A DNA stretch of 64,000 bases from an uncultured Myxococcales bacterium (GCA_903919145.1 CAIXGW010000063.1:8253-72252), one strand, 5' to 3'. Shown: positions 10,805 through 56,554, counted from the first letter of the stretch. A program made the numbers and translations. The notes: a model not told the origin generated them from the letters alone.

Positions 10805-10890
10805 GCGGCCACTGGCCACTGGCGACTGGCTGCTGGCTGCTGGCTGACTACTGACAGACTAGTGGCTACTGGCTGACCGACTGACTGCCG
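10805..10890. repeat. Degenerate CAGCCAG/CAGTCAG-type simple repeat upstream of rrf2
   Basis: ccactggccactggcgactggctgctggctgctggctgactactgacagactagtggctactggctgaccgactgactg. It is non-coding and lies directly 5' of the Rrf2 start. Confidence 0.6.
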
Positions 10891-11091
10891 ATGGGCACCC
10901 GCCCCCCGGCCAAAAGGCTTTGTCCGATAGCCTGCGGACAATGGAAAATAGTAGCCGCACCCCCGACCAATTGCAAGCCCGGCCTCACAACTCCAAGAAT
11001 CCGTTGACCGCGGCCCAAGGGGTATCCGCCGGCGCCAAATCGTGGTATCGGGGCGCAGCTTTGGTGGGCGGCCAGAGCCACTGGGGGCCCC

Positions 11092-12390
11092 ATGTCCGTG
11101 TCCGATCTAGTAGAGCTGTGGTCAGACCTCAGCCTGGATGCGCAACTGCAGTCGTTTCGCGCGCTGAGCCGCGACGATGCAGAGGTCTTCTTCTCGTCCA
11201 TCGACTCCCGCGCCGCCGCCAACCTGCTGCTGTGTCTGCCGCCCACCGAGCGGCGGACCTGGATGCGCCTGCTTGCCCCAGATGACGCGGCCGACCTTCT
11301 CCAAGAAGTCTCGCACGAAGAGCGGGTCAGCCTGCTTGGCCTCCTGGATGAAGTAAACCGCAAGGAAGTGGCGGTATTGCTTGCCTACGCCGAAGACGAC
11401 GCCGGCGGCCTGATGTCCACCCGTTTTGCCCGGCTGCGCCCAGAGCTGCGCGTCGACGAAGCGCTGCTGTACCTGCGCCGCCAAGCCAAAGAGCACCTGG
11501 AGACGATCTACTACGTGTACGTGACCGATCAAGAGCAGCACCTGCTCGGCGCGGTTTCGCTGCGGCAGCTGTTCCAGGCGCCTGCCCAGGCCACCGTGCG
11601 CGAGGTCATGCAGCCAGCGGTGGTCTCGGTCAGAGAAGACAGCGACCAGGAGGCGGTCTCTAGGCTGTTCCGCCACTACAGCTTCCTGGCCATTCCGGTG
11701 GTGGATGCCGAAGGCCACATCAAGGGCATTGTCACCATGGACGACATCGTCGACGTGGTGGACGAAGAAGCCACGGAAGACGCCCAGAAGTTCGGCGGCA
11801 TGGAGGCCCTGGACCAGCCCTATCTCGACACCGGCTTTGGCCAGATGTTCAAGAAGCGCGCCGGCTGGCTGGCGGTGCTGTTCATCGGCGAGATGTTCAC
11901 TGCCAGCGCGATGGGCCACTTTGAAGACGAAATCGCCAAGGCCGTGGTGCTGACCCTGTTTGTACCGCTGATCATCAGCTCAGGCGGCAACTCTGGCTCT
12001 CAAGCCTCGACATTGGTGATTCGCGCCATGGCCTTGGGCGAGCTGCGGCTGCGCGACGCCCTGCGCGTGGCCAAGGGCGAATTGGTGACGGGCCTGGCTC
12101 TGGGGCTGGTTCTGGGCACCCTTGGGCTTCTTCGCGTAACATTGTCGGATGTTTTCTTTGGGGGTTATGGCGACCATGCTCTGAGGATCGGCATGGCCGT
12201 TGGGATCTCTCTGGTTGGCGTGGTGATGTTCGGAACGCTTGCAGGTTCCATGCTTCCACTACTTCTGGGCCGCATGGGCTTTGACCCGGCCAGCGCCTCA
12301 GCGCCCTTTGTGGCCACGTTGGTCGACGTAACAGGCCTTGTCATCTACTTCTCAGTTGCAAGTGCGCTCCTTGGTGGCACTCTACTGTGA
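11092..12390 (+). CDS. mgtE: Magnesium transporter MgtE
   Basis: 432 aa. N-terminal MgtE_N domain, tandem CBS domains, and a C-terminal 5-TM domain with the GGNSGSQ motif. Confidence 0.9.
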   Translation: MSVSDLVELWSDLSLDAQLQSFRALSRDDAEVFFSSIDSRAAANLLLCLPPTERRTWMRLLAPDDAADLLQEVSHEERVSLLGLLDEVNRKEVAVLLAYAEDDAGGLMSTRFARLRPELRVDEALLYLRRQAKEHLETIYYVYVTDQEQHLLGAVSLRQLFQAPAQATVREVMQPAVVSVREDSDQEAVSRLFRHYSFLAIPVVDAEGHIKGIVTMDDIVDVVDEEATEDAQKFGGMEALDQPYLDTGFGQMFKKRAGWLAVLFIGEMFTASAMGHFEDEIAKAVVLTLFVPLIISSGGNSGSQASTLVIRAMALGELRLRDALRVAKGELVTGLALGLVLGTLGLLRVTLSDVFFGGYGDHALRIGMAVGISLVGVVMFGTLAGSMLPLLLGRMGFDPASASAPFVATLVDVTGLVIYFSVASALLGGTLL

Positions 12391-25597: not shown

Positions 25598-27037
25598 CTA
25601 GGCCTTCTTCTTGGCGGACTTCTTCTTGGCGGCGGGCTCGGCCAGCACCAGCGGCTCCGCTTGGGTCGGCGGCACTGGCTCTGAAACCGGGTCTGAAACC
25701 GGCTCTGACGCTGGCACCGAAGCTGGCCCTGGCTCTGCCGCAACCACCGCTGGCACGCCGCCCAGCCGCTGCTCGCGCTTGGCCTTGACCGCAGCCATGC
25801 GATCGACCTCGGTCTTGCGCCAGAACTGGACCAGACCAAAGAAGTGATCGGTAAACTGCTCGACCTCGTGGGCGGGAAACAGGGCCGCGACCTTGGCCCG
25901 CACGATCTCCTTGGCCTTGGGGGTGCCAAAAAAGTTCCAGACGACTTCGTCCAGATGCGGCAGGTGGCGATCGCAGAACTCGACAAACCGGTCCGTCTCA
26001 AACCGCTGGTGGGCGATCTTGGCGTATTCGCGCAGCCGGTCGTCAAAGCTCAGATCCTTCTTGGCCACCGCGTAATACGGCGCCCAGTCCAGGTTGGGCT
26101 TGAATTCGCGCTTGGTGGCGGCGCAGAACAGCGACCACTTGATCATGTTCTTGACCATGATCGGGAAGTGGTAGTGCAGAGACGTGACCTGAAAGTCCGG
26201 GCAGGCGTTGGCAAAATCGATGGGGTAGAAGGTGCCGTTCTGGCGCAGCGACTCGCAGGAATTGAACTCCCACTGAAAGAAGCTGTTGATGGTCAAGCAC
26301 ATGTCGCTCAGCTGCTGGTACTCGGCGCCATCGACAAAGTTGAAGCCCACCTCGTACCGGCTGTGCAGCGGCGCGTCGGGGTTGTACTTGACGATGTGCG
26401 TCTGCGGTCCAATGCCAATGGCCCGCACAAACAGGTCAAAGGGCGCCACGGCCTTTTGCACGTGCATGAGGCGCTGGCCCGACTTCTCATAGGCGGCGCG
26501 CAGTTCTTGATCGTTGTTGATCTTGGTCACGCCAACCCAGGCGCCGCCGTCATAGGGCTTCATGAACACCGGGTAGCCCAGGTTCTGGCCGACCTTGGTC
26601 AGATCAAACAGCCGGGCGTAGCGGGTCAGCGTGGTCTTGGCGTCGCCCAGGTCGGGGCTGTACTCCTTGGGCGGCACCATCCACGTCTCTGGCACCGGCA
26701 GGCCCAGGTGCATCATGGCCGCGTAGGAAGTGTGCTTCTCCATGGACTGCAAAGACCACGGATTATTGAGCACATACAAGCCGTCCATGATCACGGCCTT
26801 CTTGATCCACTCGCGGGTGGTCTGGTACCAGTGGGTCAGGCGGTCGACCACCACGTCGTACTTGACCGGTTGCTTGAGGTTGAAGGGCTCAATGGACACC
26901 CGGTCGATGTCAAAGCTCACCGTGTCGCCGTCGATAGGCAAAGACAGCTTGAGTTGCTTGATGATTTCTTCATAGGCCGCAGGCCAGCACAAGTCAGCAC
27001 CTAGCGACAAACCGATTTTCCGCGTGACGTTGGCCAT
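25598..27037 (-). CDS. Second ATP-grasp-like ligase, with a Lys-rich C-terminal tail
   Basis: 479 aa. GYPVFMKPYDGGAWVGVTKINNDQEL is a B-loop-like segment. GAGAGGA 5 nt upstream of the ATG. GC is slightly lower than in the surrounding genes. Confidence 0.6.
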   Translation of the reverse strand: MANVTRKIGLSLGADLCWPAAYEEIIKQLKLSLPIDGDTVSFDIDRVSIEPFNLKQPVKYDVVVDRLTHWYQTTREWIKKAVIMDGLYVLNNPWSLQSMEKHTSYAAMMHLGLPVPETWMVPPKEYSPDLGDAKTTLTRYARLFDLTKVGQNLGYPVFMKPYDGGAWVGVTKINNDQELRAAYEKSGQRLMHVQKAVAPFDLFVRAIGIGPQTHIVKYNPDAPLHSRYEVGFNFVDGAEYQQLSDMCLTINSFFQWEFNSCESLRQNGTFYPIDFANACPDFQVTSLHYHFPIMVKNMIKWSLFCAATKREFKPNLDWAPYYAVAKKDLSFDDRLREYAKIAHQRFETDRFVEFCDRHLPHLDEVVWNFFGTPKAKEIVRAKVAALFPAHEVEQFTDHFFGLVQFWRKTEVDRMAAVKAKREQRLGGVPAVVAAEPGPASVPASEPVSDPVSEPVPPTQAEPLVLAEPAAKKKSAKKKA

Positions 27038-27054
27038 GGGCGTCCTCTCATGAT

Positions 27055-27140
27055 GGGTTTAAGCGGGCAAAGTGGGTTCAAGCGGGCAAAGTGGGTTCAG
27101 GCGGGCAAAGTGGGTCTAAGCGGGCAAAGAAGGAGCAGGC
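27055..27140. repeat. Tandem 21 bp direct repeat (about 4 units) immediately 5' of the ATP-grasp gene start/RBS
   Basis: Minus-strand reading: cttagacccactttgcccgc / ctgaacccactttgcccgc / ttgaacccactttgcccgc / ttaaacccatcatGAGAGGacgcccATG. Each unit carries a TTGAAC-like hexamer. Confidence 0.75.
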
Positions 27141-34620: not shown

Positions 34621-35810
34621 GCCAGGAATCGGGGGACCACGCGCAAGCGCTTGGGCTTTGGCGGATGCAGGTTGCCGAGCTGCTGGACCGCCCCGAGCGG
34701 CTGCAGCTGCAGCTGCGCGATGTGCGCAGTGCCGGCTTGGGGCTGGCGGACCAATGGCCTGCGGATTTTGACAGTGTCTGCGCGGCGTTGTGGCGAAGCT
34801 GCGACGGCGGCGGTCGGCGCCTGGTGCTGCTGCCGCTGCTGGAGGGGCACGCCCTGGGCCCAGCGCTGACCCAAGCCATGCTTAGCAGCGTAGAGGGGCG
34901 CGAAGAGCGATCGGCCAACGCCGCCCTGGCATTGCTGGACGAGCGCGGGCAGCTCGATCCTTCGCAGTGGCGCCGCGTGGCCGCCGTTGCCCGCGCCCAG
35001 CGCCAGGCACTGCTACCCGACATCGATGCCGTACAGCTTCTGGCCCGGCACGGGCCCCCTGAGGCCATGGCCACCGTGGCCCTGACGGCCTTTCGCCTGG
35101 GCCCAGAAGACGCCGATGACCGCCTGACCTGCCTGGCTGGGCTGGGCCGGTTTGCCGACCCGCGGATCCTGCCGTGGCTGCAGGCTCTGGCCCGAACCGG
35201 CTCGGCCGGCCTGGAAGTGCTTCAGGCCGCCGCCCAGATCATGGCGCGCGAGCCAGAAGCGCCGGGCCTCGCCGAGCTGCTGCTGGAATTGGCCAGCGGC
35301 GAAGCTGGGCTAGATGCGTTGCTGCGCTGGTCTGCGTTAGACGGCCTCTGCCACTTGCAGGGCGCTGAGGCACTGCCGGCCCTGCTGGCGGCCCACGCGG
35401 CGGCCGGCCAAGACCTGCCTGCCTGGTACCTGCCCATGCTCGCCGGCCGGGCCTTGGCCCTGGAACCCAGCCTGGCCAAAGGCGGTCCCGCGGCGCTGCA
35501 CCTGGCGGCAGTGGCTCTGCAAGTGCCAAGCTGGCCGCCGGTTCCGGGCTTGGACCAGCGCGCCCTTTCTCGCGATGCGCGGGTGGCCCGCCAGGCCGCC
35601 TTTGAGCAACCAAGCCCCAGCCCTGATGTATTGCGCCAGCGCGCTGGCATGGAGGCCGCGCTGGTCGCCCGCCACCAGCTGGTGGGCAGCCTGCTGCCAG
35701 AGGCGCCGGCAAAAGCCCTGCCGGTCGAGTTCGCCGCCAACTGGGCCAGCATCACCGAAGAAGAGCGAGACCTATTGCTCCGCCAGGAGGCTATCTGGCT
35801 GCAGGGCTAG
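34617..35810 (+). CDS. Hypothetical Ala/Leu-rich helical-repeat protein
   Basis: ATGA overlap with the upstream gene. GC3-rich frame. No recognised domain. Confidence 0.45.
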   Translation: MSQESGDHAQALGLWRMQVAELLDRPERLQLQLRDVRSAGLGLADQWPADFDSVCAALWRSCDGGGRRLVLLPLLEGHALGPALTQAMLSSVEGREERSANAALALLDERGQLDPSQWRRVAAVARAQRQALLPDIDAVQLLARHGPPEAMATVALTAFRLGPEDADDRLTCLAGLGRFADPRILPWLQALARTGSAGLEVLQAAAQIMAREPEAPGLAELLLELASGEAGLDALLRWSALDGLCHLQGAEALPALLAAHAAAGQDLPAWYLPMLAGRALALEPSLAKGGPAALHLAAVALQVPSWPPVPGLDQRALSRDARVARQAAFEQPSPSPDVLRQRAGMEAALVARHQLVGSLLPEAPAKALPVEFAANWASITEEERDLLLRQEAIWLQG

Positions 35811-35925
35811 GAATTGCAGCGCACAAGGGCGCCGCTGTGGAACTCGCTGGTTGCCGGCGGTGCGCATATTTCGCTATGCTGCACGCAGTGGACCCTGCCT
35901 TGGGTCAGTTTGGGTGGTCGCGCTG

Positions 35926-38900
35926 ATGGGGTTCCCGCTCGGCTTTGAGGCACTGCGCCGCTATGACGCTCTGGCCGGTCGGGCTGTGCATGGCGTCGTC
36001 GTGGCTTGCCGCGGGCGATCGCCGGTCAGCGCACTGGCGCGGCTGGCGAGGGTGGCGGCAGCGGCGATGGCTGTGCTAGTGCTTGGCGGCTGCCTGGAGA
36101 CCGAGTTTGGTCCGGCCCTGACCGACAGCGCCAGTCCCGCCGACGACCAGGGCAGCAGCTCTGGCGATGCACCCACCGACAGCACCCGAATTGACAGCCA
36201 ACCCGCAGACACCGCCCAAGACAGCTCTGGCACTGCCGACGCGGGCCAGACGAAGTGCCCTGGCAGCCCGGGCTGCCCCTGCGCCATCACCCAGGACTGC
36301 GGCGCAGGAGCCTGCCTGGTGACCGCCAATGGCAAGCGCTGCGCCGCCTTCTGCATAGAGGGCAGCTGCGACGTGGGGTCGACCTGTGGCGCCGTGGCGG
36401 TCGAAATTCCGGGCGCGCCCACGGCAACCAAGTTCGGCGTGTGCCTGCCGCGCTGGCCCACTGACTGCGTGCCGTGCCTTGGCAACTCCGACTGCGCCAA
36501 CCCGGCCGACGCCGCGGCCGCCTGCGTCGATCCTGCCGGCGGCGACGGCGCCAACGGCTGGTTTTGCGCCTCCTCTTGCAAGCAGGACGCCGACTGCGCG
36601 CCAGGGCGCACCTGCAAAACCCTCAAGGGCCTGGACGGCAGCATGCACCAGACCTGTGCGCCAACCTCAGGCCAGTGCGCCTGCTCTCCGCTGGCCGTGC
36701 AGACGGCTGCCGCCACTTCCTGCCGCAAAACAGCTGCGGGCATGGGCGTTTGCAAGGGCCTGCGCAGCTGCTCCAGCGGTGCGCTCAGCGCCTGCTCAGC
36801 CCAGACTCCCCTCCCCGAAGCCTGCAACGGCCTGGACGACGACTGCGACAGCGCCGTAGACGAGCCGATCGACGCCACGCCGCTGTGCGCCGACCAGGAG
36901 CCGTGCACGGCAGAAAGTTGCCAGGGATCCAAGGGCTGCGCCTACCTGCCCGTCAGCGTAACCTGCAGCGATGACGACCCCTGCACCAGCGGAGACAAGT
37001 GCGGCAACGGCAAATGCGCTGGCGGTCCAGCCAACTGCGACGACAACAACCCCTGCACTACTGATTCTTGCGCCAGCGAAACCGGCTGCACTTATGTGGC
37101 CACTGCCGGCCCCTGCCACGACGGCGACAAGTGCACCAAGGGCGACGTGTGTGCTGCCGGCGAGTGCGCGTCAGGCCCCGCACTGAGCTGCGACGACGCC
37201 AACCCCTGTACCAACGACTGGTGCGACGCGCTACAGGGCTGCACCTCCCTGCCCAATGACGTCACCTGCACCGACGGCAACGAGTGCACCGGTGTGGACA
37301 CCTGCAAGTCGGGCAAGTGCAGCGGCCCACTGCTGGCCTGCGACGACGGCTGGGGCTGCACTTCAGACAGCTGTGACCCGCTTGCCGGCTGCGTTTTTGC
37401 CTCTGGCCAGCCCAGCTGCGGCCAGGCTCCCATGCCTTATGCCATCGCCATGGACTGCACCGAGACCGCGTTCAGCAGCTGGCGGGTGTCGGCCCCGGGC
37501 ATCGCTGTTGCCGATCCGCAGCCGCCGCTGGTCGCCTGGAAGCTCGACAATCTGCCTCCCTTGGGCGGCACCAGCCAGTGCGCCCTCAATGTCAACAACG
37601 GCAAGGATCTGGCGTGCGGCTTCTTGCAGACGTCGGTCGATGCGTGGGCAGAATCTCCATGGATTGGCCTGACTTCTGTGACCCCAGAGGCTCCGGTGGT
37701 GCTGCGCATGGAGAGTGCCGGCTTCTGGTCCAGCAGCTGGACCGCCAAGATCCTGGTCAGGCAAGAGAACCAGCCGTGGAAAGAGCTGGGCAAGCCCTCG
37801 GCCTCTGGCGCCATCTGGGGCAAGGTCACCGTCGATGTGCCAGAGCTGGCCGGCAAGATGGCGCAGATCCGCTTTCAGTTTTCTGGCAGCGACTGTGCCG
37901 ACAGCGACGGCACCGGCTGGTACGTCCGCAAGGTCTCTTTGGCGGTCGAGCCCTGCGCCAAGAACAACGGCGGCTGCGCACCCACCGCCACTTGCAGCGC
38001 CGGGCCCAACAACAGCGCGGTGTGCGCCTGCAATGCGGGCTACAGCGGCACGGGCAAGATCTGCAGCGACATCAACGAATGCGCCAAGAACAACGGCGGC
38101 TGCGCGGTCGGCGCCACCTGCACCAACAGCATCGGCAGCTTCTCTTGCGGCTGCAAGCCGGGCTTTCAGGGCGATGGCGTCACCTGCACCGACATCAATG
38201 AATGCGCCACCGGTAAGGCCAATTGCGCCGTAGACGCGCTCTGCACCAACACCTCTGGCAGTTTTGTCTGCTCGTGCAAGCCCGGCTACACCGGCAACGG
38301 CAAAATCTGCACCGACATCAATGAATGTGCCTCTGCCAACGGTGGGTGCGCGGTCCAGGCTACCTGCACCAACCTTCCGGGGTCGATGCAGTGCGCCTGC
38401 AAGGCGGGCTACACCGGCACTGGCAAGACCTGCACAGACGTCAACGAGTGCACCACCGTGGGCCTGGCCGACTGCGCCACCGAGGCGACCTGTACCAACA
38501 GCACCGGCTCGTTCAGCTGCGCCTGCAAGCCAGGCTACTTGGGCAACGGCAAGTCGTGCGTGCTCTACGGCAGCGCCGAGCTACCCGCTTCGACCTGCAA
38601 GTCGATCCAGTTGGCCAATCCCGCTACAATCTCTGGCCCTTACTGGCTCAACCTTGCCGGTTCGACGGTCCAGGTCAACTGCGACATGGTCACCGACGGC
38701 GGCGGCTGGACCCTGGTCGGCTACAAGACCGACCTGACCCTCAAGGTCAACAACACCAAGTGCTGCAGTGAGAGTTGGCTAATCAGCGACTTTGCGACGT
38801 ACTTGACGGCCGTTCAGATCAAAGCCCTGCAGTCCCTTTCTACAGAGGGCAGACAGACCTACGTGGGGCAGTGCGTCAAGTTTGCCCACTACGAATACAA

Positions 38901-39153
38901 CAGCGGCAATTTCAACCGCGCTATCGGCTTTCGCTTCGCCGATGGTTCCGTAAGCGTCAACGGCCTCAAGAGCTACCTGCCTTTGGACATCAGCGTGCCG
39001 GTTGACGAGTGCAAGGCCTTGTCTTCGCTGCCCGCCACCACCCAGTTTGTCATCCATTCCGTCAAGGTACCGGTAGTCAACATCCTGACCGACTTCCAGG
39101 GCAACGGCCAGTTCGGTTCTCAGTTGACCAAGCAGCCGGCCATGCTGCGGTAG
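35926..39153 (+). CDS. Large secreted lipoprotein: myxobacterial Cys-rich repeats, five tandem calcium-binding EGF-like domains, and a fibrinogen-C-like motif
   Basis: Lipobox VLVLGGC. Repeated CDDxNPCTxDxC modules. The cbEGF domains recur five times: CSDINECAKNNGGCA..C.C..GY.G.G..C. A later ..SGPYWLNLAGSTVQVNCDMVTDGGGWTLVGYKT matches the fibrinogen-related-domain core CDMDTDGGGWTV. The start is uncertain (35926 ATG or a downstream GTG). GC falls to about 57% over 38.0-39.15 kb. Confidence 0.65.
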   Translation: MGFPLGFEALRRYDALAGRAVHGVVVACRGRSPVSALARLARVAAAAMAVLVLGGCLETEFGPALTDSASPADDQGSSSGDAPTDSTRIDSQPADTAQDSSGTADAGQTKCPGSPGCPCAITQDCGAGACLVTANGKRCAAFCIEGSCDVGSTCGAVAVEIPGAPTATKFGVCLPRWPTDCVPCLGNSDCANPADAAAACVDPAGGDGANGWFCASSCKQDADCAPGRTCKTLKGLDGSMHQTCAPTSGQCACSPLAVQTAAATSCRKTAAGMGVCKGLRSCSSGALSACSAQTPLPEACNGLDDDCDSAVDEPIDATPLCADQEPCTAESCQGSKGCAYLPVSVTCSDDDPCTSGDKCGNGKCAGGPANCDDNNPCTTDSCASETGCTYVATAGPCHDGDKCTKGDVCAAGECASGPALSCDDANPCTNDWCDALQGCTSLPNDVTCTDGNECTGVDTCKSGKCSGPLLACDDGWGCTSDSCDPLAGCVFASGQPSCGQAPMPYAIAMDCTETAFSSWRVSAPGIAVADPQPPLVAWKLDNLPPLGGTSQCALNVNNGKDLACGFLQTSVDAWAESPWIGLTSVTPEAPVVLRMESAGFWSSSWTAKILVRQENQPWKELGKPSASGAIWGKVTVDVPELAGKMAQIRFQFSGSDCADSDGTGWYVRKVSLAVEPCAKNNGGCAPTATCSAGPNNSAVCACNAGYSGTGKICSDINECAKNNGGCAVGATCTNSIGSFSCGCKPGFQGDGVTCTDINECATGKANCAVDALCTNTSGSFVCSCKPGYTGNGKICTDINECASANGGCAVQATCTNLPGSMQCACKAGYTGTGKTCTDVNECTTVGLADCATEATCTNSTGSFSCACKPGYLGNGKSCVLYGSAELPASTCKSIQLANPATISGPYWLNLAGSTVQVNCDMVTDGGGWTLVGYKTDLTLKVNNTKCCSESWLISDFATYLTAVQIKALQSLSTEGRQTYVGQCVKFAHYEYNSGNFNRAIGFRFADGSVSVNGLKSYLPLDISVPVDECKALSSLPATTQFVIHSVKVPVVNILTDFQGNGQFGSQLTKQPAMLR

Positions 39154-49139: not shown

Positions 49140-52100
49140 CTAGTTGCACAGCCCGCCGCTGCACTTGCCCAGGCCACACGCCATGCCATCTGGCGCGGTG
49201 GGGTGCAGGCAGACGCCGGCCAGGCAGTTCTCCAGCGTGCACGGGTTGCCGTCGTCGCAGCCGGCATAGGTCTTGGCGGCGCAGCCTGCGCTCTCGCTGC
49301 AGTCTGGGTTGCCCCAGGCATCGACACGGAACAACGGAGAAAGCTTGACGTTGCTGTTGGGCTCGCGCAGGGCAATGACGGCGCCTTGGCCACTGCGCGC
49401 GGCGACGGGCACGTAGCCGCCCCACTGGCCGCTGACCGTCCAGGCCTTGCTGAACAGCACCTTGCCATCGCTCAGGCGCAGCCGCGTCCACAACCAGCCA
49501 GAGACCTTCCAGTCGCCGATGCTGGAGACCACCACCACGGTATCGCCTTCGGTCCACACGCCGCCTACCACCTCGTCACTGCCCAGGCTGCTGACCAGCG
49601 GTGTCTGCCACAAGGTAGTGCCGTCCGGGCCAAAGCGGGCCACGCCCAGTTCCTGCCATGGGCTGGAGCAGGAGCTACTGCCACAGGACTTGTAGGTGCG
49701 GCCCGCGGCGACCACGTCATCCGTCGCTGCGACCTTGACCGCTTGAAAGTCGATCCAAGAGGTCCACACGGTCAGGTTGAGCTTGATGGGGGACCCAGGC
49801 ACGCCCGCAGCCGAGAATTTGGTCAGATACATCGGCGGGCCATCGCTGAGGTTGGGGTTGGCGTAGAGCAAGGTCTCGCCGCCTTCGGTCACGCTCAAGA
49901 AGCCGCTGGAGTGGGTCATGGGGGTCTTGATCCGCCAAGAGACCACGCCGCTCTGAGACAGCCGGATGAGCTCGGTCTGGTAGGCGTTGCCGGTCGAGCT
50001 GCCCATCACCACTACCGTGCCACCTTGGGGGTGCGCGGCGAGCATGGTCAAGTTGGGCCAGCCGTACCCGCTGAGGGCTGGAATCTGCACCTGCACCTCA
50101 GGCACGCCGGCATTGCCAATCAGCAACACCTCATTGCCCCTGGCGATCCACGTGCCCTGGGCTGTCCAGGCGGTAGTGTGCCACGCGGGCTCTCCTGTGA
50201 GAGACCAGTTGGCCGTCACGCTGCCGCCAGCCGAGGTGCGCCCCAGCCACGCCGTGCCCTTGGAGGCTCCCGCGGGGTACCAAACGCCCGCCCACTGGGT
50301 GGTGCCGTCTGCCAAAGCCTGCGCCCGCCAGGGCACCACCGTCCCTCCCGTTACCCCTAGGGTTTTCTGCCACAGCCCAGGCCCTTGCGAGGCGCACTTG
50401 CCGCCCGTGCAGGCAAACGCTTCGCAGCCGCTGCCGCCTACAGCGGTGCAGGGCGCTCCGTCGGCGGCTGGCGCCTTGGTGCACTGGCCCTGGCTGCAGC
50501 CATCGGCGGTGCACGGATCGCCGTCATCGCAGGCCATGGAGATCCAGGCAGTGCCTAGGGAATTGCAGGTCTGCACGGCGCTGCCCAGGCACTGCTTGGC
50601 CCCGGGCAGGCACACGGCTGGCGGCACCTCGCACTTGCCGCCATCGCACACCTGACCCATGGCCGCGCACTTGCTCAAGACCGTTGCCTTGGTGCCGGTG
50701 GAATCGCAGGTCGCGACGTCATCGCCCTGACAATACGTCTGCCACGGCACGCACACCTTGGCCTTGCACTCGCCTTTGTTGATGCACACCTGTCCACTGG
50801 GGCAGGGGGCTTGCTTGGACCAGCCGGCGTCTTTGGTGCAGAAACCCGGCACGCCATCGACGCAGCCGTAGTTGCCAAAGATGCAGGGGTTGGTCACGCA
50901 GCTGCCGCTCTTGCAGGAGGCGCCGTTCTGCTGACAGTCCAAGAGGTTTTGCCAGACGCCGCCGATGGCACAGGTCTGCACAATGTCGCCGCTGCACTGG
51001 ACTTGGCCAAGGCTGCAGGGCGGCACCACGCACTGCCCGCTGCTGCACACTTTGCCCGCCTCGCAAGGGGTCGTTTGGTAGGCCTCGCCGTCGGCAGCAC
51101 AGGTCTGCAGGGTCTTGCCGTCGGCACAGGAGACCGCGCCGGCCGTGCACAGGGGGGCTTTCACGCAGGCCCCGGCTTGGCAGATCGTGGGCGACGGGCA
51201 AGGCGCCGCAGTCGTTTTTGCGGTCCCGGTGGCGTCGCAGGTGGCAACCGCGTTGTCTTGGCAGGTCTTGGAGCCGGGAGTACAGACCAGCGGCTTGCAC
51301 AGCCCTTTGCCGGCCTCCACTACGCAGGTCTGGTTGCTGGCGCACGGCCCGCTCTGCCAAAGGCCTTGAGCCGTGCACGTCTGCAGCGCGCTGCCGGCGC
51401 AGCTGGTCTGGCCGCTGGCGCACACCTTGCTGGCACAAGCGCCCGCCAAGCAGACCTTTTCCGCAGGGCAGTCCTTGGCTGCCGACCACTGCAGGCCGTT
51501 GTCGGCACAGGTCTGCCACTGTGGCCCTTGGCACTGGCTGGCGCCGGGCTGGCAGATCTGCGCCTTGCACACGCCGCCCTCGCAGCCCTGATCCTTGGCG
51601 CACGCAGCCTTGATCCACTGTCCGCCATTGCACAATTCGCGGGTCAGCGCATCGGCGCACTGCGCATCGCCGTCTAGGCACAGCTGGGTCACGCACTGGT
51701 TGTCTACGCAGGTCGCACCGCCGTCGCAGTCGGTTGGGTCCACGCACTGCACGCACTGGCCCTTGGATTTGTCGCACACTTGGTCGCCGTCGCACTCTTT
51801 GGTGCTGGCACAGGGCTTGGCCGGGGCCACACACACCCGATCTGCACAGGTCCAGTCTGGCTGGCAGTCCACGCTCTCTTCGCATTGCACGCAGTGGCCA
51901 GCCGAGGAGTCGCACACCGCGTCTAGGCTGGTGCAGTTCTTGTCGCTCTTGCACGGCACGGCAGGCGAGCACACGCCGTCAAAGCACGCTTGGTCAGCGG
52001 CGCACTGGGCTTGACCCTGGCAGCCGCTGGCGGGCGCATCGCCGGCCCCGCCATCGCCGACGGCATCCTTGTCTTGTAGCCCGCCGTCCTGGATGTCTTG

Positions 52101-52292
52101 GTCGGTGCCAGAGGCTCCCAGGTCATTGCCGGCTTGACCGCTGTCGGCAACGCTCAGGCTTGGCGAGGTCTCGGGCCCGCCTCCGCAGCCCGCCAGCCAC
52201 GCGGCCAGCACCGCCACACCAGCTAACTGGGCCCAGCACCGCCGCCTGTCGCCTCGTGAATGCCAGTTCAACGGTGCCTCCCCGGGGTTCAT
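49140..52292 (-). CDS. 1050 aa lipoprotein: about nine tandem 43 aa eight-Cys modules, a beta-propeller-like region, and a C-terminal CDDGNPC motif
   Basis: Lipobox LAGCGGG. Recurrent modules such as (I/V)CxxGxxxCxGxxxQTCxxxGxWxxxxxCxxxxxCxxGxC. The C-terminus is ..GCDDGNPCTLENC... Confidence 0.7.
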   Translation of the reverse strand: MNPGEAPLNWHSRGDRRRCWAQLAGVAVLAAWLAGCGGGPETSPSLSVADSGQAGNDLGASGTDQDIQDGGLQDKDAVGDGGAGDAPASGCQGQAQCAADQACFDGVCSPAVPCKSDKNCTSLDAVCDSSAGHCVQCEESVDCQPDWTCADRVCVAPAKPCASTKECDGDQVCDKSKGQCVQCVDPTDCDGGATCVDNQCVTQLCLDGDAQCADALTRELCNGGQWIKAACAKDQGCEGGVCKAQICQPGASQCQGPQWQTCADNGLQWSAAKDCPAEKVCLAGACASKVCASGQTSCAGSALQTCTAQGLWQSGPCASNQTCVVEAGKGLCKPLVCTPGSKTCQDNAVATCDATGTAKTTAAPCPSPTICQAGACVKAPLCTAGAVSCADGKTLQTCAADGEAYQTTPCEAGKVCSSGQCVVPPCSLGQVQCSGDIVQTCAIGGVWQNLLDCQQNGASCKSGSCVTNPCIFGNYGCVDGVPGFCTKDAGWSKQAPCPSGQVCINKGECKAKVCVPWQTYCQGDDVATCDSTGTKATVLSKCAAMGQVCDGGKCEVPPAVCLPGAKQCLGSAVQTCNSLGTAWISMACDDGDPCTADGCSQGQCTKAPAADGAPCTAVGGSGCEAFACTGGKCASQGPGLWQKTLGVTGGTVVPWRAQALADGTTQWAGVWYPAGASKGTAWLGRTSAGGSVTANWSLTGEPAWHTTAWTAQGTWIARGNEVLLIGNAGVPEVQVQIPALSGYGWPNLTMLAAHPQGGTVVVMGSSTGNAYQTELIRLSQSGVVSWRIKTPMTHSSGFLSVTEGGETLLYANPNLSDGPPMYLTKFSAAGVPGSPIKLNLTVWTSWIDFQAVKVAATDDVVAAGRTYKSCGSSSCSSPWQELGVARFGPDGTTLWQTPLVSSLGSDEVVGGVWTEGDTVVVVSSIGDWKVSGWLWTRLRLSDGKVLFSKAWTVSGQWGGYVPVAARSGQGAVIALREPNSNVKLSPLFRVDAWGNPDCSESAGCAAKTYAGCDDGNPCTLENCLAGVCLHPTAPDGMACGLGKCSGGLCN

Positions 52293-52396
52293 TGCGCCTG
52301 CCTAGCCGAGCCCTTGCTGGCTGTGCGAATGGACTGCGCGCAGTGGTGCCACAGAACGGCAATTGTGACGATCCCCGCGCCGGCGGTCAATGCGGT

Positions 52397-52699
52397 GCCG
52401 CGCCATCGGACATTGCCCTGGGGACTGTCCGACGGCCCGCCGTGTCGCATCGGACACTGCCCTGGGGAGTGTCCGACGGCCGCCGTGTCGCATCGGACAT
52501 TGCCCTGGGGACTGTCCGACGGCCCGCCGTGTCGCATCGGACATTGCCCTGGGGAGTGTCCGACGGCCCGCCGTGTCGCATCGGACATTGCCCTGGGGAG
52601 TGTCCGACGGCCTGCCGTGTCGCATCGGACATTGCCCTGGGGAGTGTCCGACGGCCCGCCGTGTCGCATCGGACACTGCCCTGGGGAGTGTCCGAGGGC
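52397..52699. repeat. Tandem array of seven copies of a 44 bp palindromic unit GTGTCGCATCGGACAYTGCCCTGGGGASTGTCCGACGGCCCGCC
   Basis: The hairpin cores begin at 52404, 52448, 52491, 52535, 52579, 52623 and 52667. The period is 44 bp (one unit is 43 bp). Each unit contains the inverted repeat CGGACA..TGTCCG around CCCTGGGG. Units differ only by 1-2 SNPs. There are no unique spacers. Confidence 0.9.
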
Positions 52700-53568
52700 T
52701 ACGCCACGCCCCACTCAACCGGCACCCCAACCTGCTGGCAAGACAGGCGCCACAACCGCTCGATGTCGTCGGCTCTGCCCGCCTGAGGGGCCGGCTGCGC
52801 AGGCTGCGACCGCGCGAAATACTGGCCGCTCAGCGCCTCAAGCCCGGGCGCCAGTGCGCAATACACAGATGTGGCGGCGCCTTCCTGCAAGCTGTCGGGG
52901 CCGTCCATGCCAAAGCCCTCTCGCAGCAGCTTGGTGCCCACCACGCCTGGATGCAGGCTGAAGGCGCTTAGCTGCGCCGCGTCAAAGCGCTGTGCCAGGG
53001 CGCGGGCAAACATCACATTGGCCAGCTTGGACTGGGCATAGGCGGCGTAGCCCGTCTGCTGTTGCAGGTGATCCCAGTGGATCTGCCCGCGGTTGTGCGC
53101 CACAGACGCGACCACGACCACCCGCGCCGGTGCCGAGCGCAGCAGCAATGGCAACAGCTCGTGAGTCAGCAGCAGGGGCGCCAAGTGGTTGACCTGCCAG
53201 CTGCGTTCCAGCGGATCGACCTGCCCAGTGGCGCCCCGGGCCTGCGCGGCGGCAGCGGCTGGACCGGCGGTCGAAAACACCCCGGCATTGTGAATGACCC
53301 GGTCCAACCGCGGCAGCTGTTCGACCAGTTGCGCGGCTCCGCGGCGAATCGCGGCAAAGTCGGCCAGGTCAAAGACCACCCCCTGGGGCTGGGCGCGACC
53401 GCAGAGCGCTGCGAGTTCAGCGCTCACCGCCTGAACTTTTACCCCGTCGCGACCATGCACGACCACCTGAGCGCCGCGGCTGACCAACTGGCGGGCGGTC
53501 TCGCGGCCGATGCCGTCCGTCGACCCGGTCACAAGGACTACTAGAGAAAGAGGGGTACTGCTGCTCAC
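52699..53568 (-). CDS. Short-chain dehydrogenase/reductase (SDR) family oxidoreductase
   Basis: VLVTGSTDGIGRETARQL is the TGxxxGxG NAD(P)-binding motif. The YxxxK catalytic region is present. Confidence 0.8.
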   Translation of the reverse strand: MSSSTPLSLVVLVTGSTDGIGRETARQLVSRGAQVVVHGRDGVKVQAVSAELAALCGRAQPQGVVFDLADFAAIRRGAAQLVEQLPRLDRVIHNAGVFSTAGPAAAAAQARGATGQVDPLERSWQVNHLAPLLLTHELLPLLLRSAPARVVVVASVAHNRGQIHWDHLQQQTGYAAYAQSKLANVMFARALAQRFDAAQLSAFSLHPGVVGTKLLREGFGMDGPDSLQEGAATSVYCALAPGLEALSGQYFARSQPAQPAPQAGRADDIERLWRLSCQQVGVPVEWGVA

Positions 53569-53604
53569 CTGGACCTCCGATGCTGGCGCTTTCCTGGATT
53601 GGGC

Positions 53605-53799
53605 TCAGCGCGCCGGCGGAAACACTTTGCCCACCGTGTAGTGGACCGGGCAAAACCCAGTAAACAAGCTGGATACCATCACCACGCCGTCCGCAGCGGC
53701 GATCGCCAAGAACCGCGGGTCCACGTAGTAGCCCAGGGCCAAGCTGCTGAGGTTGAGCAACGCTATGATGCCGTCGTGGAATTTTGTCTGTTTGGTCAA
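53605..53799 (-). CDS. DUF2892 (YgaP-like) small two-TM membrane protein, 64 aa
   Basis: TTG at 53797-53799, 6 nt after AGGAGG. LTKQTKFHDGIIALLNLSSLALGYYVDP..MVSSLFTGFCPVHYTVGKVF resembles the YgaP C-terminal TM module. The consensus GFCP(L/V)Y is from memory. Confidence 0.55.
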   Translation of the reverse strand: MTKQTKFHDGIIALLNLSSLALGYYVDPRFLAIAAADGVVMVSSLFTGFCPVHYTVGKVFPPAR

Positions 53800-53889
53800 G
53801 GGAATCCTCCTGTGGGGGCTGGCTATGCACGCCGAAAGGGTGCGCGCTGGCCGGCAGACCATAGCAGACCGCCGGCGCAAGCACGACTG

Positions 53890-54185
53890 ACCGCCGGACA
53901 CCCCCAGGGGAATGTCTGATGCTTGTAGCCGTTGACGAATTTCGGACGGCCAGCAGGCGGCCCGCACCGAGAAGCCCCGTCGGACATTCCCTAGGGGAAT
54001 GTCTGATACTTGTAGCCGCTGATGAATTTTGGACGGCCAGCGTTCCGTCCCCGCCGGGCGACACCGCCGGACACTCCCTAGGGGAATGTCTGATCCTTGT
54101 AGCCTTTGACGAATTTCGGACGGCCAGCAGACGGCCCGCACCGAGAAGCCCCGTCGGACACTCCCTAGGGGAATGTCTGATCGGG
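53890..54185. repeat. Tandem array of about 3.5 copies of an 87 bp unit, each carrying the palindrome CGGACAYTCCCTAGGGGAATGTCTG
   Basis: CGGACA recurs at 53895, 53981, 54068 and 54155. The units alternate between two spacer variants, giving an A-B-A pattern. The core is related to the 44 bp unit at 52397-52699, sharing CGGACA..TGTC and a cggacggcc segment. Confidence 0.85.
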
Positions 54186-54206
54186 TTGGCAGCCCTGGTT
54201 GCCGGC

Positions 54207-55661
54207 TCAGGGCTTGCCGATGGCGCCGATCGCCCGAACCTCCGCCGGGCTGTTGTGGTCAAAGCGGATCTCAAACACCGGCAGGCCAGCGGCGAGGCGG
54301 GTCAGCGTGCCGTTGGCCTGGATGCCTCCCAGCCGCTCCAGGGTCGGCAGCAGGTCTCGGGCGGCATCTGGAGGGCACACGCCGGACTCTACCAGGTGAG
54401 TCGCCAGTTCAGCGCGCAGAAAGGCTGTGACCTGGGGGTGGTTCACAAACATCTGAGCGCCCGCCACCATCGGCGACACCAGCGGAACGCGTGTATAGCT
54501 GTGCAGCGCGCCGGTGATGACCACGCTGGCCACCGCGGCCTCGACGTGCTCTCCGCCCAGCACCACCCACTCTAGCTCGGGCGCACCTGCCCAGCGCAGC
54601 TCGTGAAAAGCCCTGAGGAATGCCTGGGCCAGCTCGGGGCGCACGCCATAGCTCGGGTCGGTCATGGCAAACCGCAGGTGGCCGCAGCCCATGTGCTCGG
54701 GGCGCGCCAGGTGGTCCAGCAGAGCAGGGCGCACGCCAGCCGGAGGGTGAATCAGCCAGCGGCGCCACTCCTGCGCATCAAAGATAGAGCCCAGGTGCGG
54801 CGCCACGCGGTCATCTTTGCGCAACCCCTCAACAATCAGGCGATTCATCGCATGGGTGTCGCTGTGCATGTAGAAGCGGCCAAAGGTGTCGACGTGGCGC
54901 TCTAGAATCTGGGCAACTTCGCGCCCGTCCAGGGGCTGGCCTCGCACCTGCTCAATGGCGGCCAGCGCCAGCAGCAGCTCGCCGGCGTCACCGCCCGGCG
55001 TCCCGATGACGCCGTGGTCGTCGCGACCGTCAACGCAGCTGCGCTTGCCGTGCAGCGCCAGCGCCGCCAGCTTGACCCAGCGCACGGCATGGGGATCGCC
55101 CACGTGCAGCTGGATCTGTTCTTGGGTCAGCGGCCCTACACAGGCCTGGGCGTGCAGCGGCCGACCGTCGCGGCCCATGCCCGGCGCCAAGGCAAACAGC
55201 TCTTTGCGGTACGAATTGGGGTCGCGCAGGCACACAAAACCCTGCGAGCGCCAGGCCGCCATCCCGCCCTGCATGGCCGCCACGCGCACCATGCCCAGGG
55301 CCTCCAGATAGCGCGCCGCCACCCCAGCGCGGTCGCCGTGCTGCGACACCAGCACCACGCAGGTCTCGCGGTCCAGCACTTGCGGCACTTCGCCAAGCTT
55401 GTGCAGCGGCACGTGCGTCACCGCCGGAATGTGGCCCAGGGGCCCGGTCAGCTCGGCCTCCTCGCGCAGGTCCAAGATGCGCACCAGCTGGCCCTGCTCG
55501 GCCACAAAGCTGGGCGGCAGCGTGGGCGTGCCACCGCCATCGCGGCGCAGCGTCCCCTGCCAATTCAGCCGCAACAGTCTGGTGGCCGGCGAGTCCGCGG
55601 TAGCCGCGGGAGGATTCACGGGATCAGCAGCAAGCACGGCGTTCTCCTTGGGCATCACCAT
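54207..55661 (-). CDS. Rhodanese-homology domain protein with Ser in place of the catalytic Cys, plus a roughly 350 aa uncharacterised C-terminal domain
   Basis: ILDLREEAELTGPLGHIPAVTHVP..VVLVSQHGDRAGVAARYL follows the rhodanese fold pattern with S at the Cys position. A 7 bp overlap with the bestrophin gene implies an operon. Confidence 0.55.
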   Translation of the reverse strand: MVMPKENAVLAADPVNPPAATADSPATRLLRLNWQGTLRRDGGGTPTLPPSFVAEQGQLVRILDLREEAELTGPLGHIPAVTHVPLHKLGEVPQVLDRETCVVLVSQHGDRAGVAARYLEALGMVRVAAMQGGMAAWRSQGFVCLRDPNSYRKELFALAPGMGRDGRPLHAQACVGPLTQEQIQLHVGDPHAVRWVKLAALALHGKRSCVDGRDDHGVIGTPGGDAGELLLALAAIEQVRGQPLDGREVAQILERHVDTFGRFYMHSDTHAMNRLIVEGLRKDDRVAPHLGSIFDAQEWRRWLIHPPAGVRPALLDHLARPEHMGCGHLRFAMTDPSYGVRPELAQAFLRAFHELRWAGAPELEWVVLGGEHVEAAVASVVITGALHSYTRVPLVSPMVAGAQMFVNHPQVTAFLRAELATHLVESGVCPPDAARDLLPTLERLGGIQANGTLTRLAAGLPVFEIRFDHNSPAEVRAIGAIGKP

Positions 55662-56554
55662 AGGATGCCGTTGGCGTCGACAGTCACGGCGGCGGGCAAC
55701 TCGCTATCGCCCAAGCGCTGGCGCAAGTTGCGTTCGATAGTGACGGACAGGCTGGTAATGGGCAGCGAGTTCCAGAAGTGGTTGAACGGGTCTTCGAGCA
55801 CACGCCCCGTCTCGCTGATCAGGGTAAAGGCCAGGCAGACCGCCAGGTTGACCGGCACCACCGCCCAGCTGAGGTTGGCCACCACCGCCAGCGGAAACAG
55901 GATCGCAAACAGCACCAAGAGCTGCGACACAAAGAAGGCGTAGCCGCGCGGCATCGGCGTGCGCTTGATCCGCTCGCAGCCGCCTTGGGCGTCCAGCAGC
56001 GCTGCCAAGGTTTGGTCCAGGCTCTGCAGACGCAGCGGCTCGACGCCGGCGCGGGTCAGCTCGCTCAGCGTCTGGTCCAGCAGCGCGTGGCACGGCGAGC
56101 TCTGTAGCCGCAATTCGTCGACTTGGCCCTCGGTCAGGCCGCACAGCGCGACAGAACGCTGCACCATGGGGTCGGTAAAGGGGTCGTCGTCGCGCAATTG
56201 GCAACGCAGGACATGAACATACAGGACCTGCCGCCTGACCGCGCGCTCGGCCGTGGCGCGATCGCTTAGGTAGGCCAACGCCTGCGAGCCAAGCATGCGG
56301 CTGCTGTTGACGAGCTTGCCCCACAGCTGCCGGCCCTCCCACCAGCGCGCATAGGCACCGTTGACGCGAAAGCTGGCGAAAATGCCCAGCGCCGCGCCAA
56401 CGATGCTGGCCGGAGCGATGGGAATCTGAAAGTGGGTCCAGCCAGCGACGTCGTGGATCAGCCACGCCGAAGCGCCCAACCCGGCGTACATCAGCCCATA
56501 GCGCCATTGCCAGCGCAGCACCCGCAGTAGGGAGCCGCCGTTGGAGACCATCAT
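55655..56554 (-). CDS. Bestrophin/YneE (UPF0187) family putative anion channel
   Basis: 299 aa. Four TM segments. RWWEGRQLWGKL is the family hallmark. Confidence 0.7.
   Translation of the reverse strand: MMVSNGGSLLRVLRWQWRYGLMYAGLGASAWLIHDVAGWTHFQIPIAPASIVGAALGIFASFRVNGAYARWWEGRQLWGKLVNSSRMLGSQALAYLSDRATAERAVRRQVLYVHVLRCQLRDDDPFTDPMVQRSVALCGLTEGQVDELRLQSSPCHALLDQTLSELTRAGVEPLRLQSLDQTLAALLDAQGGCERIKRTPMPRGYAFFVSQLLVLFAILFPLAVVANLSWAVVPVNLAVCLAFTLISETGRVLEDPFNHFWNSLPITSLSVTIERNLRQRLGDSELPAAVTVDANGILW

Follow-up and report, generated by a model that had tools for sequence, protein, structure and literature searches.

Our results suggest that the tandem palindromic repeats described here arose by local expansion of an extragenic palindromic element that is REP-like and specific to one uncultured Myxococcota lineage, an explanation to which we give a probability of roughly 55%. 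The window (by which we mean the whole stretch of DNA that was analysed, 64,000 nucleotides with a G+C content of 67%) holds this element in only two regions, which are adjacent intergenic regions and each carry a tandem array. The explanation draws on the anatomy of the arrays, the inversion of the second relative to the first, their absence from close relatives, the location of family members 3′ of non-orthologous genes, and differences in copy number between assemblies. The best reading of the array is a REP/BIME- or MIRU-like repeat that has at most hairpin effects on mRNA.

The initial annotation described seven tandem 44-bp units between an SDR gene and the promoter of a lipoprotein gene, and this description is borne out. 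Tandem Repeats Finder places array 1 at 52404-52699 (period 44, 6.8 copies, 95% matches, no indels, score 543), and each of its seven head-to-tail units contains the 25-bp palindrome CGGACAYTGCCCTGGGGASTGTCCG. Exact matches to this palindrome on the + strand number seven, against a mean expectation of 0.00 in 100 shuffles, and start at 52407, 52451, 52494, 52538, 52582, 52626 and 52670. The resulting spacings (44, 43, 44, 44, 44 and 44) agree with the 44/43-bp period reported earlier. Each unit consists of a 25-bp dyad, CGGACA-N13-TGTCCG, followed by a constant 19-bp spacer, and reads CCGTCGGACACTCCCCAGGGCAATGTCCGATGCGACACGGCGGG on the − (gene) strand. The CGGACA/TGTCCG arms are those first described, with pairing that extends one base further out on each side (TCGGACA/TGTCCGA), and the interior of the dyad is partly self-complementary. 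The claim that the array fills the whole gap upstream of the lipoprotein gene did not hold: array 1, which extends from 5 nt past the SDR stop to 16 nt above the −35 box, covers about 73% of the 406-bp SDR-lipoprotein gap, and the promoter-proximal 111 bp before the ATG (52293-52403) are unique sequence. A CRISPR reading had already been discounted, and we reject it as well, because the spacers are the same 19 bp in all array-1 units and about 80% alike in array 2, and Pfam identified no cas domain in the genes scanned nearby. An iteron or centromere reading is likewise rejected, the genes scanned around the arrays having no rep or par domains by Pfam.

A second array, overlooked in the initial annotation, lies at 53891-54182 and comprises four units with an 87-bp period. 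Its 31-bp cores, CCGYCGGACAYTCCCTAGGGGAATGTCTGAT, start at 53895, 53981, 54068 and 54155 on the + strand, where the units hold CGGACAYTCCCTAGGGGAATGTCTG, and they are separated by spacers of 56-62 bp that are about 80% alike. Array 2 starts 25 nt past the stop of a rhodanese-domain gene, within a gap of 407 nt that is close in size to the 406-nt gap of array 1, and the two arrays are about 1.2-1.7 kb apart. When array 1 on the − strand is compared with array 2 on the + strand by local alignment, CCGTCGGACACTCCCCAGGGCAATGTCCGAT and CCGTCGGACATTCCCTAGGGGAATGTCTGAT are identical at 27 of 31 positions, and an independent repeat search likewise reported arms of 31 nt in the two arrays with 84-90% complementarity. 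The conserved core of about 31 bp can be written CCGTC-GGACA-N-TCCCY-A-GGGS-AA-TGTCY-GAT, or GGACANTCCCYNGGGSAATGTCY as a search string for the family, and is predicted to be capable of forming a hairpin or cruciform. Since one core is found in both arrays with different spacers and periods, the recurring element is the core and not the whole unit. Orientation is uniform within each array, and the only inversion is that between arrays 1 and 2, which thereby bracket a two-gene segment consisting of a 64-aa ORF and the SDR gene.

Other repeats occur elsewhere in the window. At 27054-27129, four tandem copies of the 19-bp sequence TGGGTTCAAGCGGGCAAAG lie 17 bp upstream of the start of a − strand gene (25598-27037), and these could be an operator or iteron-like set. 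At 10820-10945, within the intergenic region above a gene starting at 11092, are short CTGGCTG/CTGACTG repeats and the palindrome TTGTCCG-N8-CGGACAA. A 123-bp tandem repeat at 38023-38373 is coding, and specifies the EGF units of a 1192-aa protein (35575-39153) with eukaryote-like EGF_3/cEGF/EGF_CA domains and Dicty_CTDC repeats.

All the genes around the arrays lie on the − strand, in the transcriptional order bestrophin, rhodanese, array 2, 64-aa ORF, SDR, array 1, promoter and lipoprotein. The bestrophin gene (55655-56554) is upstream of the rhodanese-domain protein gene (54207-55661; called as 482 aa elsewhere), and the latter directly precedes array 2. The 64-aa membrane ORF (53605-53799), situated between this array and the SDR gene, has a strong Shine-Dalgarno sequence (AGGAGG 7 nt before a TTG start) and a weak YgaP-like_TM similarity (E=0.054). 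The SDR gene (52699-53568) matches adh_short with E=8.5e-31, and the lipoprotein gene (49140-52292) encodes, as the initial annotation stated, a Cys-rich lipoprotein of 1050 aa, with the lipobox LAAWLAGC, in which no Pfam domain scored above threshold. For both the lipoprotein and the rhodanese, named homologues come from Myxococcota (among them Sandaracinaceae, Kofleriaceae, Polyangium, Nannocystaceae and ‘Deltaproteobacteria’ MAGs), and lipoprotein orthologues in other Myxococcota contigs have different gene neighbourhoods.

Directly below array 1 is a predicted sigma-70-like promoter for the lipoprotein gene, TTGACC-17 nt-CACAAT (52362-52390, − strand). In a contig carrying an orthologue with 76% identity (L011), this promoter is kept as TTGACC-17-CACACT together with the 5′-UTR; homology with the window starts at about the −35 box, and the upstream DNA is unrelated where the array sits. 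The promoter being retained there without the array, the lipoprotein promoter would appear, on this comparison, to work without it in relatives. The initial annotation had also pointed to a −24-like TGGCAC hexamer about 60 bp above the ATG. The hexamer is indeed present (52346-52351, − strand, 59 nt before the ATG) and lies within the block conserved with L011, but it is 11-16 nt downstream of the −10 box, and TGGCAC-N5-TTGCW is unmatched with up to 2 mismatches at 52337-52352. The number of matches across the window equals chance, and a sigma-54 promoter is rejected. The block past the −10 box, GGCACC..TGCGCGC.GTC..CGCAC.GCC, is common to window positions 52293-52361 and L011 positions 395-470, and its conservation suggests a functional 5′-UTR or operator. 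A second in-frame start with a Shine-Dalgarno sequence, GGGGAGG-N5-TTG/GTG-AAC, is also common to the window and L011, so that the lipoprotein start codon may possibly be 24 nt downstream of the annotated ATG.

Comparison with assemblies of the same species gave differences in copy number for both arrays. In an assembly (L003) that shares 99.7% identity with the window across 6 kb, array 1 has five units where the window has seven; the flanks are identical, and a few point changes are private to L003, two of them stem-breaking. In L018, array 2 has two units where the window has four. Array copy number is either polymorphic or has been collapsed by short-read assembly. In three assemblies contigs break at or beside the arrays: L004 breaks within the first array-1 unit, and both L003 and L004 begin about 55 bp from array 2. 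The break zone just outside array 2 spans 53839-53861, with L003 and L004 starting at the equivalent of window position 53838 and L018 ending at about 53861. At the other end of L003 (7214-7246), the final 33 bases diverge from the window at about 46539, either because the contig end is chimeric or because the strain has a junction of its own. On the − strand, array 1 is traversed by an ORF (52714 to 52289) that leads from a GTG start inside the 3′ end of the SDR gene to an ATGA overlap with the lipoprotein ATG. The difference between seven and five units is 87 bp, so the frame of this ORF is kept, and no gene is called at its position in L003; it is probably a by-product of the high G+C content.

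The unequal copy numbers and the contig breaks raise the concern that the tandem structure or the copy number was created by the assembler, and the initial annotation had named an assembly artefact as something that would overturn its interpretation. We regard this as very unlikely. An independent assembly has array 1 with at least five units and private point variants, the 407-bp array-2 gap is repeated in another assembly, and a third array, described below, has identical length in two assemblies. Since the arrays recur in several independent assemblies of the same species, and only the copy number differs, the arrays themselves are not a product of assembly.

The arrays are absent from the corresponding loci of close relatives. 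In L016, whose rhodanese is 90% identical and whose SDR has 83% amino acid identity, the layout is bestrophin-rhodanese-[63 bp]-SDR-[44 bp]-convergent gene, and the locus has neither array 1 nor array 2, no 64-aa ORF and no lipoprotein gene. The core was also not found in L017 (84%) or in L019-L021 (68%). Given their absence from these relatives, the arrays are recent additions to an ancestrally compact operon. Around the lipoprotein gene the outcome is similar: no array lies upstream of the orthologues at 76%, 60%, 59% and 49% identity, and in three of these contigs (L012-L014, 59-60%), where the core was not found, a divergent methyltransferase gene is upstream.

Other members of the family were nevertheless detected. 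In the contig of the 49% lipoprotein orthologue (L015), CCGACAGTCCCCAGGGCAATGTCTGATCGTTG is located 55 bp past the lipoprotein stop, at the contig end. A second copy of the core in the same contig (153-238) lies just 3′ of another gene and is partly micro-amplified: its left arm, GGACACTCCCC(TTGCT), i.e. GGACACTCCCCTTGCT, is present in four copies with a 16-bp period ahead of the right arm. Judged from this sequence, the left-arm repeats would show slippage within the element at a second scale. Translated array 1 was searched against 5.8 billion and 1.84 billion predicted proteins, and the only match was a spurious ORF (P0001) with its one-residue variant (P0235) on a 30-kb contig. Back-translation indicates that this third array, present in two assemblies, has at least five cores, CGGACA[A/G]YCCCCAGGGCAATGTCCGATGC[G/A]ACAC, with a period of 88-89 bp. 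It is flanked by the end of a Ser/Thr kinase gene on one side and by a convergent gene on the other, and thus is no promoter element there. All five loci of the family (arrays 1 and 2, the two L015 sites and the P0001 contig) are 3′ of genes, and these are non-orthologous.

The initial annotation had proposed that the enhancer idea would fall if the unit proved to be scattered singly at hundreds of loci. That is not what we see; the family looks small and often tandem. Among contigs of relatives, core sites are present in only 2 of 10, at two loci in a total of about 90 kb. Scans with the degenerate core CRGACAYTSCCCYRGGGRNTGTCYG covered 185,579 species-representative genomes (GTDB), JGI metagenomes and viral contigs. 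Apart from a convergent Saccharibacteria terminator, their sole match was a single hairpin in a Myxococcota MAG (L001), which is terminator-like and possibly related; no other related element was revealed. The Saccharibacteria loci (L002, L005-L010) carry a conserved terminator, GGCCAGACATTCCCCCGGGGAGTGTCTGGCC followed by a T-run, which matches the degenerate core by convergence and is unrelated. A BLAST search of plasmids and phages returned a 39-bp coding repeat of Nonomuraea as its sole match, which is unrelated and was set aside.

Could the arrays be functional at the level of RNA, or as remnants of terminators? Single units are predicted to fold at −14.3 to −19.3 kcal/mol, and the whole arrays fold significantly better than shuffled sequence (z = −5.3 and −3.3). 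Together with their location in a co-directional gene string, and hence probable transcription, this is what could be expected if the transcribed array were no passive hairpin but had a function as a structured RNA, for example as a tandem sRNA, a set of processing sites or a protein-sponge RNA. We nonetheless consider this quite unlikely. The Rfam check proposed in the initial annotation gave no family match at the gathering threshold in the window, and none even at E<=1 in 52200-54300; the orientation of the core relative to the gene strand is opposite in arrays 1 and 2, and also within L015; and close relatives lack the arrays. Stem covariation was not found among ten distinct cores, the shuffled value equalling or exceeding the observed one in 172-207 of 500 shuffles. 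Core positions 7/19 and 9/17 vary without compensation, and the GACA/TGTC arms are invariant. It is about equally improbable, if slightly less so, that an ordinary gene-end terminator hairpin was duplicated by slippage independently at each locus, with no mobile or dispersed family involved. In its favour, the arrays are directly past stop codons, and similar single terminator-like hairpins are found in the Myxococcota MAG and, by convergence, in Saccharibacteria. Against it, the 31-bp core recurs with its non-palindromic positions and tails (GATGCGACAC or GATCSTTG) at no fewer than four unrelated loci in at least two organisms, and the ancestral gaps of L016 are without this hairpin. A canonical intrinsic (Rho-independent) terminator is in any case rejected: no T-run or U-tract follows the hairpins, and a terminator scan of 52000-54400 gave 0 sites.

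One of the two readings offered by the initial annotation was a set of multimerised enhancer or operator sites, to be bound by a bEBP or another dimeric regulator. In this proposal the 25-bp palindromes would bind a dimeric regulator, the seven sites above the lipoprotein promoter and the four above the 64-aa ORF and SDR genes would act as an enhancer, operator or boundary array, and the inverted arrays might loop out the two intervening genes. The near-perfect 25-bp dyad and its invariant arms are attractive features for such a site, as are the bracketing of the two-gene segment by inverted arrays, the restriction of the core to two adjacent intergenic regions in 64 kb, and the position of the proximal palindrome, whose centre is about 64 bp above the predicted transcription start and which lies 16 nt from the −35 box. 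We found the proposal to be unsupported, and judge it improbable, since the canonical −24/−12 promoter is missing, no regulator gene is nearby and the array is absent in orthologues. Specifically, in the neighbouring genes scanned within 40077-63481, Pfam identified neither a Sigma54_activat, HTH or transposase domain nor a bEBP or DNA-binding regulator of another kind; orthologous loci lack arrays although the lipoprotein promoter is conserved; and family members elsewhere lie 3′ of genes, also between convergent genes, where no promoter is served. The 44-bp and 87-bp periods correspond to 4.2 and 8.3 helical turns, hence the sites would not lie on one face of the helix. An MrpC/CRP-type operator has the motif TGTY-N8-RAC (PMC4320627). 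The TGTC/GACA arms that occur here in that order are N6 apart (TGTCCGATGCGACA; TGTC-N6-GAC), and an MrpC/CRP-family operator is rejected on this spacing; in the main dyad the order of the arms is opposite to that of an MrpC/CRP-type site, with N13 between them. We think it unlikely that the dyad is the site of a putative dimeric protein of this lineage, with the arrays forming a protein-bound boundary, enhancer, insulator or looping device tuned by copy number, or that the family represents a novel type of small mobile palindrome whose spread is independent of a RAYT.

We return to the REP-like reading and to how the family compares with known repeats. Like the REPs surveyed by Di Nocera et al. 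(2013, PMC3733652), the elements described here are imperfect palindromes (25-31 bp) with a predicted stem-loop, are extragenic and found in either orientation, mostly downstream of ORFs between co-directional or convergent genes. Clusters of REPs also arise by reiteration of the unit together with flanking DNA (PMC3733652). REPs are 20-40 bp long and number tens to hundreds of dispersed copies per genome; two loci are counted in the 64-kb window. The CGTC- and GTAG-REPs have an unpaired tag, an 8-9 bp stem beginning with AT, a 4-5 nt loop and a CCA tail, and GTAG REPs are associated with a RAYT gene (PMC3733652); no RAYT or other transposase was identified in the neighbouring genes scanned here. 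A CGTC tetranucleotide is located 5′ of six of the seven array-1 cores and two of the four array-2 cores, and its T pairs within the stem; the equivalent position is GGTC in L015 and xTTC in P0001. Membership in the CGTC-REPs is rejected, as the stem and loop geometry differs and CGTC is not kept in L015 or P0001. Myxococcota are not among the hosts listed in the REP survey (PMC3733652).

The suggestion in the initial annotation of a REP/BIME-like structural element is broadly right and is the better supported of its two readings, through the sites 3′ of genes, the palindrome and the absence in relatives, with the orientation of the units as a caveat. BIMEs and REPINs consist of REPs in alternating (inverted) orientation with short conserved linkers between them, whereas all units within each of our arrays are head-to-tail. 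The MIRU-type intergenic VNTRs of Mycobacterium offer a parallel in organization; these are direct tandem repeats of 40-100 bp in intercistronic gaps at several loci, and their copy number varies between strains. The family described here has periods of 44, 87 and 88-89 bp at three intergenic or intercistronic loci, the operon broken up by array 2 has a compact counterpart in L016, and the ORF through array 1 with its ATGA overlap recalls the MIRU ORFs. The sequences are unrelated to MIRUs, however, the units are palindromic, and the 44-bp period is not a multiple of 3. The pneumococcal BOX elements contain tandem 45-bp boxB modules in variable number, with a stable predicted fold, near gene ends and promoters. 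Array 1 resembles them in having intergenic head-to-tail modules of about 45 bp that differ in number between assemblies, have a stable predicted fold and sit near a gene end and a promoter; it differs in that the family has no boxA/boxC-like terminal modules, an unrelated sequence and a host from another phylum. Sigma-54 UAS and tandem operator arrays share with array 1 the repetition of dyad-symmetric sites above a promoter, but array 1 lacks a −24/−12 promoter as well as an activator in its vicinity, is missing where the lipoprotein promoter is conserved, and belongs to a family also found at a promoterless site. We accordingly file the family as one that works like a REP/VNTR element and stands outside the named REP families on geometry and orientation.

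A scenario consistent with these comparisons is that the core lodged just 3′ of stop codons in the ancestral bestrophin-rhodanese-SDR operon, once in each orientation, both arrays now starting 5-25 nt past a stop codon. Each copy would then have been amplified head-to-tail with flanking DNA (13 bp in array 1 and 56 bp in array 2), presumably by replication slippage or unequal recombination between units, which could lead to the copy-number variation of a VNTR. If the arrays are transcribed with the upstream genes, each unit would form a hairpin with a folding energy of about −14 to −19 kcal/mol. By analogy with REP, BIME and BOX elements, hairpins strung along the end of the SDR message would be expected to hold back 3′-5′ exonucleases and to dampen read-through into the lipoprotein gene, which would use its own conserved sigma-70-type promoter immediately below array 1. 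Some observations count against a REP-like element, namely the small number of loci (two within the 64 kb of the window, another two in relatives' contigs totalling about 90 kb), the scarcity of related sequences in the genome and metagenome scans, the single orientation of units within an array, the lack of a transposase among the genes scanned, the lack of a U-tract, the lack of stem covariation and the stem-breaking changes in some L003 units. The differences in copy number, moreover, could stem from short-read assembly.

Proteobacteria, mycobacteria and streptococci have well-documented intergenic VNTRs and small palindromic repeats outside genes. Our literature searches found none for Myxococcota, and a repetitive sequence, said to be of about 87 bp, was reportedly described in Myxococcus xanthus in 1991. 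The finding opens no new mechanism, and its practical value is mainly to caution against over-reading the array as a regulatory enhancer. The arrays would explain why metagenome contigs of the source organism break at these points and, if the differences in copy number are real, they could serve as strain markers. For the Myxococcota, the family provides a concrete example of an extragenic palindrome and shows how such elements can split a compact operon, the gap having grown from 63 bp in L016 to 407 nt in the window.
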